Source: an uncultured Nitrososphaerota archaeon (GTDB lineage: Archaea > Thermoproteota > Nitrososphaeria > Nitrososphaerales > CADDZS01). Taken from it: a stretch of 64,000 nucleotides of DNA. The translations under genes were made by a program, and so were the position numbers. The notes below the pieces were generated by a model that saw only the letters and a program-made list of their open reading frames with translations, did not search any database and was not told the origin of the DNA. Positions 30,327 to 39,332 of this stretch are shown here, one piece after another. Where the stretch lies: assembly GCA_963799845.1 (NCBI GenBank), contig CAWCYI010000006.1, positions 1,376,001 to 1,440,000 on the forward strand, in the 5' to 3' direction. Position 1 is the first letter of the stretch. The number at the start of each line of letters is the position of its first letter.

Positions 30327-31517
30327 ATGTCCTCGATCGACTTTGAGTTTGAAGCTAAGAATCTTGAACCCGAGATCATAGCAATTCGGAGAGACCTTCA
30401 CGAGAATCCCGAACTTTCGTTCATGGAACAGCGTACCGCCAAAGTAGTTGCGGGTCATCTGAAGCGCCTGGGAATCGAGGTCAAGACAGAAATTGGAGGT
30501 ATCCATGGGGTTCTTGGCATTTTAAAAGGAGCGAAGGAAGGAAAAGTCGTGGGACTGCGCGCAGATATGGACGCCCTGCCAGTCACTGAGGATGTCGACC
30601 TTCCCTTCAAGTCGAAAACTTCCGGAGTAATGCATTCTTGCGGACATGATACTCATGTTGCGATGCTCCTAGGTGCTGCTGAGCTCCTGGCCAAACATAA
30701 AGCTGATCTCCACGGTACTGTGAAATTCTTTTTCCAGCCGGCAGAAGAGGATGGGGGGAGGGGAGGAGCGAAACCTATGATTGAGGCCGGAGTCATGGAA
30801 AATCCAAAAGTCGATTACGTGTTCGGCTTGCACATTGGCGGCGAATATCCGTCGGGAACGTTTGGGGTTCGAGCTGGTCCGTTCATGGCGGCACCTGACG
30901 GGTTCAAGATCAGGATCATAGGAAAGGGCGGTCACGGATCAAGGCCCCATGAAACGATTGATCCGATTTTCATCTCTGCAGAGCTGATTGTTGCGCTTCA
31001 AGGTATCTCAACCCGAATAATCAACCCCGTAGAGCCGTTTGTTATTTCGGTCTGCAGCATTCACTCTGGTACCAAAGACAACATTATTCCCGACGATGCC
31101 GAGCTCCTGGGAACTATTCGCACGATGAACGAAAAGACACGAGAACTCGCGAAGAAGAGCGTTGGCCAGGTTACAAAGTCAATTTGCGAAGCTTACGGAG
31201 CAAAGTACGAACTTGAATTCAAGCAAGATGCGTATCCCGTCACCTACAACGATGAAAAAGTGACTGAAAAAGTGAAGGAAATTCTGAAGACAGTCCGGGG
31301 GACGAAGACAAACGAGATCGACGTCAAACTGGGTGCCGAGGATTTTTCGAGATTCCTTCAGAAGGCTCCGGGGACGTTCTACTACTTGGGAACGAAGAAC
31401 GAGCAGAAGGGTTGCATTTATCCGAACCACAGCTCGAAATTCAAAGTCGACGAAGACGTCTTAAAGTTTGGATCTGCCTCACTCGCGAAATTGGCGCTTG
31501 AATTTGGAAAGCAATGA
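30327..31517 (+). CDS. M20D amidohydrolase / CpsA-like carboxypeptidase
   Basis: RRDLHENPELSF, LRADMDALP, MHSCGHD.H, FQPAEE, GGHGS.PH, AEDF. Confidence 0.95.
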   Translation: MSSIDFEFEAKNLEPEIIAIRRDLHENPELSFMEQRTAKVVAGHLKRLGIEVKTEIGGIHGVLGILKGAKEGKVVGLRADMDALPVTEDVDLPFKSKTSGVMHSCGHDTHVAMLLGAAELLAKHKADLHGTVKFFFQPAEEDGGRGGAKPMIEAGVMENPKVDYVFGLHIGGEYPSGTFGVRAGPFMAAPDGFKIRIIGKGGHGSRPHETIDPIFISAELIVALQGISTRIINPVEPFVISVCSIHSGTKDNIIPDDAELLGTIRTMNEKTRELAKKSVGQVTKSICEAYGAKYELEFKQDAYPVTYNDEKVTEKVKEILKTVRGTKTNEIDVKLGAEDFSRFLQKAPGTFYYLGTKNEQKGCIYPNHSSKFKVDEDVLKFGSASLAKLALEFGKQ

Positions 31518-36704: not shown

Positions 36705-37032
36705 TTAGATTACCGTAACGCGCTGTATCTTTTGTCTGGCTCCGTCGATAGCCTTGACGATCTCAGTCGTAGAAAAAGTCTAACTCGAATGAAATGTTAA
36801 TCTCCTGAACTATCGCTCTCTCCACTCCAGCTGCGCTCTCGCGATACAATCCTCTCAAAGCGGCGACGAAATTTTCGGGATCGTTGGGAATGTCGGCCCT
36901 CTTTATGTGCCCTATCTTCTGTAGATGCCAGTAGACAAGATTCTTTACATTTGGTCCGACTCTGTCAAGCCCCCTGTCGATGCAAGCCATGATTTGATCG
37001 TCACATGGAATGGACTTTTCTATGACGGACAT
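36705..37032 (-). CDS. NitrOD5/DUF3227-like helical protein (apparent T5 homopolymer frameshift near 36775)
   Basis: CIDRGL...G...VYW.L...I..DPE.F...L......A..VERAI; removing one T extends it to EIVKAIDGARQKI, matching the UbiA N-domain. Confidence 0.7.
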
Positions 37033-37227
37033 TTGATTGAGAAGTAGCTCACTGCTTATAGAAGTCTAACGTTACTAGGACATCGGTTGACGAGTTACAT
37101 TCCTCACATCAGAGACTAATCACGTTCGTTACTTTACGAAAGAGTTCTCAGCACAGGATACTTTTTCCATTATATCGTAACCCGCAATAAATTGGGGCAT
37201 AGGCCGAAATTAAAACAAAAAGTCAGG

Positions 37228-37380
37228 TTATTCTCTTTCCAATTCTCCGTTCATGACTCTCTTTATTGTGGACGCGGCACTTCCGAAAGTCTCGTCAAGG
37301 TCCCTTTCGTGCTCGATTATTATCCTCGCTGCAATTTCGCCAAAGGAATCCGTTAGCCGAGCTTTTTTGGTCTCTTCCAT
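37228..37380 (-). CDS. putative 50-aa protein
   Basis: MEETKKARLTDSFGEIAARIIIEHERDLDETFGSAASTIKRVMNGELERE. Confidence 0.4.
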   Translation of the reverse strand: MEETKKARLTDSFGEIAARIIIEHERDLDETFGSAASTIKRVMNGELERE

Positions 37381-37419
37381 GTTTAAGCTCCGCGCACTCT
37401 TTGAATTAGTTTGTAATAT

Positions 37420-38755
37420 GGTTCTATTGAATCTCTCGGTGTTCTTTTGGTTGTTGAAAACCAGTTAGCCTACGACTCAACTTACTCGCATCGACTTTCA
37501 GGATTACCGCTTCTTTATTGGATTCCTGTACCATTGCTTCAATTGCGAGTCCTTTCGACTGGGCGAACCTCACCCAACCTTTGCGAGATTGGTTCATCAC
37601 CGCAACCAGATCGCGGTTGAACCATTTCTCACAATTCTGACACCAGAGGTGGCGCTTTCTTTCCCTGCTATCTTGGAGTCTCTCCCCGCATTGATAGCAT
37701 CTCGAACTTGTGCCCCTAGTCTCAGATTTTGTCAAGTGGATTATCGGGACTCCACCCCAAGCTGCTTTGTATTCTATCTGACGTTTGATTTCAGCAAAAG
37801 GCCGGTGATTATTCATCTGTCGTCTATAGTCTTTACCCTGCCAGTTCCCTTTGCGGTACATCGAGCGAATATTATTTATGTCCTCGAAGGTAATCGCTGA
37901 TCTTCTCTCAAGCGCATCGAGTACGACTGCCTTTGAGATGACATGCAGAATCCTCTTCACCCGCTCAGTTTTTCTCTTGCCGTATTTTGCTGCGAGCTCG
38001 CGCCTGATCCTGAAATCATTTCTCTTGAAGGACTTCACAGCATCCTTCGTTGTTTCCCCGATCTCAATTACCTGGCTCATGTCATAGTAAGTTACCTTCT
38101 CAGAATTTCCGCCAGTAAGGTTTCTGAGATTCCTATCAACCTCGACTGCGTTTCTTATTTCGAGTTCGGGCACGTCTTTGGAAATGCAAAGGGAGAGAGA
38201 AGATTCAGTCAGCGTGAACGAATTGACTCTCACATCAGTATCTGAAAGGACTTGAAGAGTGTGCCTGGTGAGAGGAATCCAATCGACTTTTCTATTACCT
38301 AAAGGAATTCTCAGCTTGCCGTTGATAATCTTGAAGCCGTAGCAGGAAACGAGGATTAGTTTCTTGAGATATGGATTCTTTGTGTGAAAGCCGCGCCTGA
38401 TAGATTTCTTCCTTGCGGCCAAGATGCCACTGGCTTTCGAATTCGCACAAAGTTTGTGATAAGAGGGAACGTTGTATTGTAGATTCTTGTAGCTGAAATT
38501 ACAGAGCTTCTTCATTGTGGAAACGTCATTGGCAAGGCCGATCCTGATGCAGTCGTTGACCATCTGTCTGAAATTTTGCATTAAACTGAGAATCTCAAGC
38601 GAAGGTTTGTACAACTGTTTTGTTGATTTCCTAGCTAGCAAAGAGGGTTTCATCGAGCAAACCTACTGAAATTTATGGGTTTCATCGTAAGTCGCTGAGC
38701 AACCAAGCGACCAATTTCAACAATCAAAAGAAATACCGAGAGATTCAACAGAACC
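37420..38755 (-). mobile_element. 1336-bp non-autonomous element with IS6-like terminal inverted repeats carrying tnpB
   Basis: 37420-37459 GGTTCTATTGAATCTCTCGGTG-TTCTTTTGGTTGTTGAAA vs reverse complement of 38715-38755 GGTTCTGTTGAATCTCTCGGTATTTCTTTTGATTGTTGAAA (37/41 identical). Confidence 0.8.
37424..38653 (-). CDS. tnpB: TnpB / Cas12f-like RNA-guided endonuclease
   Basis: RuvC I VDRN, RuvC II FEDI, QIEYKA, TSSRCYQC..CQNC zinc finger, RuvC III NRD.VA..N. Confidence 0.93.
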   Translation of the reverse strand: MKPSLLARKSTKQLYKPSLEILSLMQNFRQMVNDCIRIGLANDVSTMKKLCNFSYKNLQYNVPSYHKLCANSKASGILAARKKSIRRGFHTKNPYLKKLILVSCYGFKIINGKLRIPLGNRKVDWIPLTRHTLQVLSDTDVRVNSFTLTESSLSLCISKDVPELEIRNAVEVDRNLRNLTGGNSEKVTYYDMSQVIEIGETTKDAVKSFKRNDFRIRRELAAKYGKRKTERVKRILHVISKAVVLDALERRSAITFEDINNIRSMYRKGNWQGKDYRRQMNNHRPFAEIKRQIEYKAAWGGVPIIHLTKSETRGTSSRCYQCGERLQDSRERKRHLWCQNCEKWFNRDLVAVMNQSRKGWVRFAQSKGLAIEAMVQESNKEAVILKVDASKLSRRLTGFQQPKEHREIQ

Positions 38756-38980
38756 TGATATTATAGTATTTTGAAAGAATGCACAATTTGCGAATTGGTA
38801 ACAATATGATCCAAGTTCATTGGGCAAGAATTGGGGTGGGTGAAAAATCAAGTTGCACGGGACGGGACTGCAACAGGGCGGTTAGCTTGACGTTACTAAA
38901 TGATTGTTAGGCAAGCGCACACTTAAATAGGTAGGCTCGGCGTACTATTCCCTTTGAGCCTAAGAAGTGGTGTTGATTTG

Positions 38981-39184
38981 ATGGAACAGCAAAGTCAATA
39001 TGAGGCCAGCAGTGCTTCCGTTAAGATGGAAACTTGCCCTGAATGCGGTGGCTCCTTCACCCAAAAGGGCTATCTTGACCACCTTTTTGCGAAGAGAGAC
39101 TGTATGCGAAAGTACTGGGAAGAAGAAGAGAAAAACCACATTTCTCGGCTTCGACACAGGACTGCTCGCAGCATCGTTAGGTAA
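38981..39184 (+). CDS. small zinc-finger protein
   Basis: CPECG..F....YLDH......C. Confidence 0.55.
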   Translation: MEQQSQYEASSASVKMETCPECGGSFTQKGYLDHLFAKRDCMRKYWEEEEKNHISRLRHRTARSIVR

Positions 39185-39332
39185 GATAGATCGGGCGTTT
39201 TTTAGCCCACTTCTTTTTCCTTTCGACAAACTTTCACTTTAGCTTGTATTTCCTTCACATGACTACTTTCTTGATCCTTTAGATTTCTTGTTCAGGAAAC
39301 TGCTATTAGCATGGGAATGAGAAAAAAGGACC

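Follow-up and report, generated by a model that had tools for sequence, protein, structure and literature searches.

Elements that carry TnpB and elements with IS6-type ends

What is established about TnpB biology comes from IS605 and IS607 elements, where scarless excision explains the use of a guide aimed at the empty site. IS200/IS605 and IS607 elements have neither terminal inverted repeats (TIRs) nor target duplications, as characterized in the available portion of a 2026 review (PMC13565253). Here we describe a tnpB gene in another setting. The window, a 64,000-nt stretch from an uncultured Nitrososphaerota archaeon (contig CAWCYI010000006.1, positions 1,376,001 to 1,440,000), holds at 37420..38755, on the minus strand, a 1336-bp element measured from TIR to TIR and built around tnpB, which is missing from the same site in two genomes of the same genus (G004 and G002). 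It resembles the IS1341 group in its size of ~1.3 kb, in having tnpB as its sole gene and in an omegaRNA predicted to overlap the tnpB 3' end, but the window family has both TIRs and duplications, so that under the definition accessible in that review the element is structurally neither IS200/IS605 nor IS607. From sequence comparison we consider it likely that the element is a transposase-less passenger cassette of a Nitrososphaerota-wide family of IS6-like DDE transposons, moved in trans; a cassette of two IS6-type TIRs, tnpB and an omegaRNA encoded across the tnpB 3' end is the best explanation of its parts.

That TnpBs can be linked to DDE transposases and TIRs, and that solo TnpBs can be mobilized in trans, is already published for other insertion sequence (IS) families. 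The portion of Altae-Tran et al. 2023 (PMC10691335) available to us describes six DDE-associated TnpB branches (DDE-1 to DDE-6), all with inverted terminal repeats, together with solo TnpBs that have the ends of transposase-bearing relatives, suggesting mobilization in trans. Like these, the window element has TnpB within inverted repeats and the tnpB 3' end near the transposon end. Unlike here, the DDE families named in the accessible parts of the sources are not IS6: IS630 in PMC10691335, and ISL2, IS630 and IS1031 in PMC13565253. We found no report of an IS6-TnpB link in the literature searched, in which PMC10691335 was available in part and its supplementary DDE-branch tables could already include this clade. 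Eukaryotic DDE/TIR transposons carrying Fanzor1, as outlined in the same review (PMC13565253), likewise place a TnpB-type nuclease on a TIR/DDE transposon that makes duplications; Fanzors are eukaryotic or viral and the duplication is read there as part of the transposon-adjacent motif (TAM), whereas here the duplication would start the guide and a TAM-like motif lies upstream of it.

IS6/IS26 elements share the bacterial TIR consensus GGTTCTGTTGCAAA and make 8-bp duplications, and archaeal IS6 members often keep the initial GG and the G at position 7 and have longer TIRs (Harmer and Hall 2019, PMC6807381, in its accessible part). The present family matches that description in TIRs that open with GG and carry G at position 7, in the 8-bp duplication and in partner transposases for which the IS6 model is the best match. 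It differs from IS6/IS26 in that the window element lacks a transposase and the family TIRs are longer, at 20–40 nt, and from classic IS6 enzymes in partner transposases that are ~150 aa longer, with an N-terminal zinc-binding extension. Four features are apparently new: the IS6-type partner, the duplication as the start of the guide, the arrangement of a TIR within a hairpin, and a one-sided TAM-like motif. A preliminary description of this DNA, made from the letters alone, had proposed a distinct DDE-TIR/TnpB system; its IS6-type partner does appear new, and the general DDE/TIR-TnpB link was already in print in PMC10691335, as far as that source is accessible.

The window element and its insertion site

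The left-end (LE, in tnpB orientation) TIR arm lies at 38715..38755 (minus), 102 nt upstream of the tnpB ATG, and reads inward GGTTCTGTTGAATCTCTCGG...; the right-end (RE) arm lies at 37420..37460 (minus) and doubles as the 3' terminus of the predicted omegaRNA scaffold (...GAUUCAAUAGAACC). The alignment of the two arms, 41 columns long, has 3 mismatches and 1 gap; its score is 60, and the highest score from 200 shuffles is 24. The first bases of both arms are GGTTCTRTTG. In the whole 64-kb window a 21-nt tip pattern has exactly two matches, while at least two matches were seen in 0 of 100 shuffles. Of the 14 positions of the IS6/IS26 consensus, which is bacterial while the host here is archaeal, the LE arm shares 11 and the RE arm 10, and both arms have G1, G2 and G7 of the IS6/IS26-type TIR.

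According to the list of open reading frames (ORFs) of the window, the arms enclose no gene other than tnpB. It encodes 409 aa (37424..38653, minus), with a RuvC-like triad of D173 in VDRN (38135-38137), E257 in FED (37883-37885) and D348 in RD (37610-37612), and a C4 zinc finger (C319/C322/C338/C341; 37631-37699) between RuvC-II and RuvC-III, all on the minus strand. In an alignment of 13 relatives D173, D348 and all four zinc-finger cysteines were invariant and E257 at least 90% conserved. The ORF matches PF07282 (Cas12f1-like_TNB) at 46.8 bits (cut-off 26.3), and its best NCBIfam match is NF040570 (guided_TnpB) at 69.2 bits, under the cut-off of 100. The stop codon TAG (37424-37426, minus) is 4 nt from the tip of the RE arm, and the C-terminal tail that crosses the RNA region is not conserved in the same alignment; the reading frame entering the TIR therefore looks incidental. 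In a paralogue from the same genome (p3, locus L009 in G000:C6) the tnpB frame passes the RE tip and ends in the flanking duplication, which shows that chance stops determine these C-terminal tails.

The structural account in the preliminary description thus stands: a tnpB with three RuvC acidic residues and a zinc finger, inverted repeats of 40/41 bp beginning GGTTCTRTTG, the ORF stop inside one of them, and no tnpA in the element. Its statement that no target duplication was visible has to be revised, since a decayed duplication becomes detectable through the empty sites that turned up, where it had suggested looking for them, in relatives. The uninterrupted site reads GTTTG-CGGTAT-TAG in G004 and GTTTG-CGATAT-TAG in G002, and the window reads GTTTG-TAATAT, then the element, then TGATAT-TATAG, the gap having been placed by pairwise alignment of each flank with the empty site. 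The two sides of the window copy accordingly read TGTAATAT and TG--ATAT. The RE-side copy of the duplication is at 37412-37419 (minus), where it forms the first 8 nt of the predicted guide, and the LE-side remnant, ATATCA, is at 38756..38761 (minus), with 6 of 8 nt left. On these sequences the duplication is either one of 8 bp with 2 nt lost in one copy or one of 6 bp with one mismatch; whichever length applies, the comparison says that the element is an insertion. Soil-metagenome contigs from four DNA runs of one study span both junctions without differences, some bins being uncovered, and within the same coverage no contig joined across the element.

A family with shared ends and 8-bp duplications

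The window's own genome (a 4.6-Mb, 9-contig assembly, 86.7% complete) holds three tnpB paralogues with 50–62% amino-acid identity, one of them frameshifted. At all four of its tnpB loci the arms start GGTTCTGT-like, while the inner parts agree within an element and differ between elements, and the 3' ends of the paralogue elements are always ...ACAGAACC or ...ATAGAACC. Paralogue p3 has an 8-bp duplication, CGGATTCC at both sides, with CTTG before the left copy, and its left tip is 3 nt short. The only paired GGTTCTRT tips in this genome are those of the window element, and the 244 single tips compare with ~280 roughly expected; there is no enrichment of tips and no swarm of miniature transposable elements with inverted repeats (MITEs) there.

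Among 41 related genomes, nine have a tnpB homologue (the tallies over these 41 include the unpublished G001, and the 301-genome tally below also G264 and G275; no sequence-level claim uses these). LE and RE ends scored above all 200 shuffles at 9 of 20 loci from these relatives, and TIRs are kept in homologues that are merely 30–38% identical, as at L029 with 24 of 24 bases. One relative, G011, holds 27 copies of its TIR against 0 for a reversed-pattern control, and none of these copies encloses a transposase.

We then drew on two wider scans. A scan with one genome per species detected 275 tnpB relatives, of which the best 80 were used, and a metagenome scan detected 539 further relatives, of which 80 were used. 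The best 80 of the 275 genomic relatives are almost all labelled Nitrososphaerota or Thaumarchaeota, and at 21 of these 80 loci the TIR score was over that of every shuffle. Counting as an insertion only a perfect 8-bp direct repeat directly outside arms that match at 11 or more of 16 positions, we obtained 27 unique insertions from 158 distinct tnpB loci (140 with enough flank), against 2 matches for the controls at three offsets combined. The 27 tnpB elements with duplications are 1224–1451 bp long. Over the tnpB elements of the family, RE tips are nearly invariant and LE tips variable.

A few close homologues occur in metagenome-assembled genomes labelled Bathyarchaeota, Methanomethylicota or Promethearchaeati (L104, L110, L120-L123, L127 and L167); these off-lineage labels could reflect horizontal transfer, or differences in binning or labelling.

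MITEs and mobile insertion cassettes are TIR-flanked, transposase-less derivatives of transposons. The present elements are likewise non-autonomous and have TIRs in common with an autonomous IS, and minis keeping both TIR tips were seen as well: deletion minis in G011 of 261 bp (C18:29602-29862) and 53 bp (C18 ~31428-31480), and one in G002 of 75 bp (C136:7027-7101, L315), whose left arm agrees with that of the window at 36 of 43 positions. The difference from MITEs is the cargo, an RNA-guided nuclease whose predicted guide RNA uses the TIR.

A long IS6-like transposase with the same ends

A clearer picture of the link between tnpB elements and a transposase comes from G044, a complete Nitrosopumilus chromosome (the genome of L170). 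It has a 1970-bp IS (L184:413-2382) with a perfect 29-nt TIR beginning GGTTCTGTGTAATCTTCG and the duplication CTATTGTG, and, separately, three tnpB-only elements of 1332–1347 bp whose TIR tips are identical to those of the IS at 18 of 18 bases; two of these three have 8-bp duplications. The G044 transposase, of 378 aa, has an N-terminal cysteine/histidine-rich region with an IS1/IS1595-type zinc-binding match, followed by an IS6/IS240 DDE core, and scores 42.1 bits with PF13610 and 102.8 bits with NF033587 (IS6 family; cut-off 125). A second partner transposase exceeds the IS6 model cut-off (126.9 bits vs. 125), IS6 being its best NCBIfam model. In another genome, G045, the TIR on the transposase contig agrees with the tnpB-element TIR at 17 of 19 positions.

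Of the 301 genomes sampled from the order, 123 have a long IS6-like transposase. A wide search of transposase loci gave 40 raw duplication matches against 16 control matches at three offsets; because control matches were this many, only the 30 with GGxxCTGT-type tips were counted, or 28 after removal of shared sites. The 72 transposase loci thus yield 28 unique ISs, 1.97–3.5 kb long, that have tips of GGTTCTGT type and 8-bp duplications. The ISs at the 72 loci hold assorted small passenger ORFs, and a search of these loci gave 0 TnpB matches: in contrast to the DDE-branch TnpBs, tnpB and transposase never occur here in one element.

Three further observations concern these autonomous ISs. At L218, L328 (G163:C1, ~166.9-174.3 kb), L333, L336, L351, L354 and L358 the IS adjoins the end of another copy, the adjoining ends being separated by exactly the 8-bp duplication and the flank being ACAGAACC or GGTTCTGT. 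IS26 inserts next to an existing copy of itself, and the arrangement recalls that behavior. At L227 (G233), L230 (G137) and L339 (G158), ISs lie at what is apparently the same site, AAGAGTAT followed by TGTTYTAG or TGTTTTGA; this is a case either of inheritance of one insertion or of site preference. Finally, G044 has a 4126-bp copy of its autonomous IS (L192:506-4631) with the duplication TTTAATAG, in which the transposase frame is broken into two pieces, of 119 aa and 233 aa, and the left TIR is separated from the transposase by ~2.7 kb of extra DNA.

A predicted omegaRNA that ends at the right TIR

Over their last 160 nt, 47 diverse elements can be aligned well, and RNAalifold finds in them a 7-bp long-range helix with compensatory changes in 6 pairs. 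A second 7-bp helix connects the segment right after a conserved GAAG to RE TIR positions ~8–14. In the window, the predicted omegaRNA scaffold, in the minimum extent examined, is 37420..37579; helix 1 pairs 37544-37550 with 37484-37490, and the terminal hairpin pairs 37474-37481 with 37426-37433, its second strand inside the TIR (all minus, with covariation from the 47 relatives). For the two helices 87.3% of the cells are paired, compared to 59.4% in column shuffles, none of 500 of which comes up to the observed value, and sliding the partners by 1–3 columns lowers the paired cells to 25–38%. Double changes are found in 13 of the 14 helix pairs. The minimum-energy fold of the window sequence includes both helices (z = –2.1), and the region 36900-39300 has no Rfam match at E ≤ 1.

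A structured RNA ending at the TIR tip is thus well supported by alignment and covariation, which agrees with the earlier suggestion of an omegaRNA ending at the TIR. On this evidence the RE TIR is under constraint as DNA and as RNA alike, and this double constraint may account for the near-invariance of RE tips next to variable LE tips. By TnpB geometry the predicted guide would be 37400..37419 (minus), ATATTACAAACTAATTCAAA.

A TAM-like motif on one side of the insertions

Directly 5' of the left-side duplication, 24 of the 27 tnpB elements with duplications have the triplet nTR (TTG or TTA in 16, and T at position -2 in 26). At the mirrored RE-side position nTR was found in 5 of 27. For autonomous ISs the counts on the two sides were 3 of 23 and 4 of 24, after leaving out sides that abut another element's end (23 and 24 of the 28 ISs remain) and six matches with GGTTCTGG-type or other tips. 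The background frequency of nTR is 0.158, and the excess at the tnpB elements is strong (Fisher P ~1e–7, binomial P ~1e–16). In the empty allele, nTR stands at the exact TAM position for a guide that starts with the duplication. In the window this TAM-like position, directly 5' of the LE-side duplication, is 38762..38764 (minus) and reads ATA, as against CTA in the G004 and G002 empty sites.

We read the one-sided nTR as indirect evidence, in sequence, of TnpB acting on unoccupied alleles, in which case insertions adjacent to a TAM would be the ones to persist. From the same motif at the expected TAM position, RNA-guided, TAM-dependent cleavage by the window TnpB is indirectly indicated and putative.

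Proposed mechanism and competing explanations

A long IS6-like transposase of ~370–400 aa, to which shared ends and duplications point, would insert the tnpB element in trans; with an N-terminal zinc-binding region, a helix-turn-helix and an IS6/IS240 DDE core, this enzyme would bind both TIRs and cut the target with an 8-bp stagger. The RE arm would then serve twice, as a transposase site in DNA and, judging by covariation, as the 3' strand of the last omegaRNA hairpin in RNA. The guide would be the flank just past RE, hence the 8-bp duplication first. Given the left-only nTR, the TnpB-omegaRNA complex may cut the unoccupied allele (nTTR, then the 8-bp target, then the right flank) and would spare the occupied locus, where AGAACC stands before the target, so that copying into such sites, or retention at them, would be favored.

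Mobilization in trans by an IS6-type DDE transposase acting on IS6-type ends, as the preliminary description had put it, is supported at the level of the family, where tips are shared (18 of 18 bases in G044) and the 8-bp duplications recur; this support comes from sequence. The searches it had suggested for further TIR copies and for IS6 transposases with the same ends had a divided outcome: the exact window TIR was found nowhere else in its own genome, while its subtype recurs in the G002 mini; and IS6-like transposases with the same ends exist in the family (G044 and the 28 ISs), and no intact one was found in the window's genome, which is 86.7% complete, nor any with the exact TIR subtype. 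The fuller proposal, of an RNA-guided nuclease fitted to a DDE transposon, with a TIR doubling as a hairpin strand, a guide starting with the duplication, and TnpB acting in homing or against loss on the unoccupied nTTR allele, we hold only tentatively, at somewhat less than an even chance. If it is true, only TAM-adjacent, rightly oriented insertions persist, a genomic footprint of TnpB activity, and one that concerns a transposon type leaving no scarless empty site.

Several observations weigh against a passenger cassette mobilized in this way. A blastn-short search placed the window's exact TIR at no other position in its own genome, and the window TIR subtype otherwise occurs only in the 75-bp mini, never around a transposase. 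Duplications are missing at three G011 copies, at L191 and at paralogue p2. No cognate transposase matched in the window's genome at E ≤ 1e–30; that genome keeps only a transposase pseudogene (with stops, at 25–32% identity) and short fragments. Co-occurrence of tnpB with the transposase is weak: among the 41 relatives, the transposase is present in 4 of 9 tnpB-positive and 10 of 32 tnpB-negative genomes (9 of 31 without G001), kin that are not independent, and four of five transposase-rich genomes have no tnpB of this family at E ≤ 1e–30. The nTR motif could stem from an asymmetric target preference. Bacterial IS6/IS26 elements, moreover, move replicatively, which removes the need to restore an excised copy, so that any benefit from TnpB is conjectural.

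Since no intact cognate transposase was found there and its TIRs and duplication are decayed, the window copy is probably stranded, with its nuclease gene intact. A stronger form of this, in which the element arrived as proposed and is now an immobile relic, its TIRs fossils and its TnpB kept for a host role or simply undecayed, seems unlikely to us as the full account. It fits a single-copy element whose TIR is found nowhere else in the genome, whose arms differ at 4 of 41 columns, whose duplication has decayed and whose RE abuts the upstream region of a conserved small ORF (37228-37380), in a genome where no intact cognate transposase was found at 86.7% completeness. That same incompleteness means a transposase could have been missed, however, and the catalytic triad, the zinc finger and both predicted RNA helices are intact; the site is moreover empty in the two same-genus genomes, which makes the insertion lineage-specific and not an old conserved host gene. 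Movement of the tnpB elements by a different DDE transposase, for example a short archaeal IS6-like enzyme of 221–241 aa, we regard as improbable. The window's genome does contain a short IS6-like IS of 749 bp, intact and in at least three copies (L020:1218-1966 = G000:C6:1635976-1636724, with more near C6:177684 and C6:1357189), which encodes a 221-aa transposase (68 bits with the IS6 model, under its cut-off) and has a perfect 15-bp TIR, TCTGCCGTTAACTTA, and an 8-bp duplication, CATCATTT; in G036 the TIR of a short IS, GGCTCCTTTAACTTAAGG, agrees with the tnpB TIR of that genome at 13 of 17 positions. Yet the short-IS TIR in the window's genome has little beyond a few bases in common with the window TIR, whereas the ISs with the long transposase have up to 18 of 18 tip bases in common with tnpB elements.

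Least probable of all, and very remote in our judgement, is an ordinary IS200/IS605 element of the IS1341 group, moved by a Y1 TnpA, with the inverted repeats a by-product of RNA structure. That tnpB is a hallmark gene of IS200/IS605, that the window's genome has two IS200-type tnpA genes and that the RE arm is part of a predicted RNA hairpin would all suit such an origin. Neither tnpA gene, however, is near any tnpB in that genome, and 8-bp duplications with long TIRs are the opposite of what defines IS200/IS605 in the available portion of PMC13565253. Although it is not part of the RNA, the LE arm co-varies with the RE arm. Nor is the flank adjoining LE conserved as a target would be: the variable duplication stands there, the conserved nTR is 8 nt off, and there is no fixed 4–5-nt target. 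RE has a predicted hairpin, and none was listed at LE with the minimum length set to 14, without a search aimed at LE hairpins.

A passenger cassette moved in trans by an IS6-like transposase would make this family a natural case of the same nuclease carried on a target-duplicating TIR/DDE transposon. It is a large family, with exact borders, matched autonomous partners and an orientation-specific TAM-like motif; it allows the role of TnpB for a DDE transposon to be addressed, and is a source of compact archaeal TnpB/omegaRNA pairs whose TAMs are predicted. For the window alone the result is modest, probably one stranded copy.

Other sequences near the element and in its genome

The IS240/IS6 DDE model, run on the window's genome, reported the transposase pseudogene, IS3-like genes and the short 221-aa IS6-like gene. 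No TIR was seen around the IS240-like pseudogene. The rve-type transposases of 355 aa and 309 aa were considered as partners and set aside as IS3-like and unrelated. An IS3-like element with the 355-aa frame and rve domains is present in multiple copies in this genome (G000:C4:1950422-1951486, C6:113884-114948, C6:934279-934671 and C2:15118-15510) and is unrelated to the tnpB element. Solo ends of the short 749-bp IS occur elsewhere in the same genome.

Just downstream of the element, a 50-aa ORF (37228-37380, minus) on the tnpB strand is kept in G004 and G002; 40 nt separate its start from the RE tip. The predicted guide region is therefore also the upstream region of this ORF, and read-through from the element could reach it.

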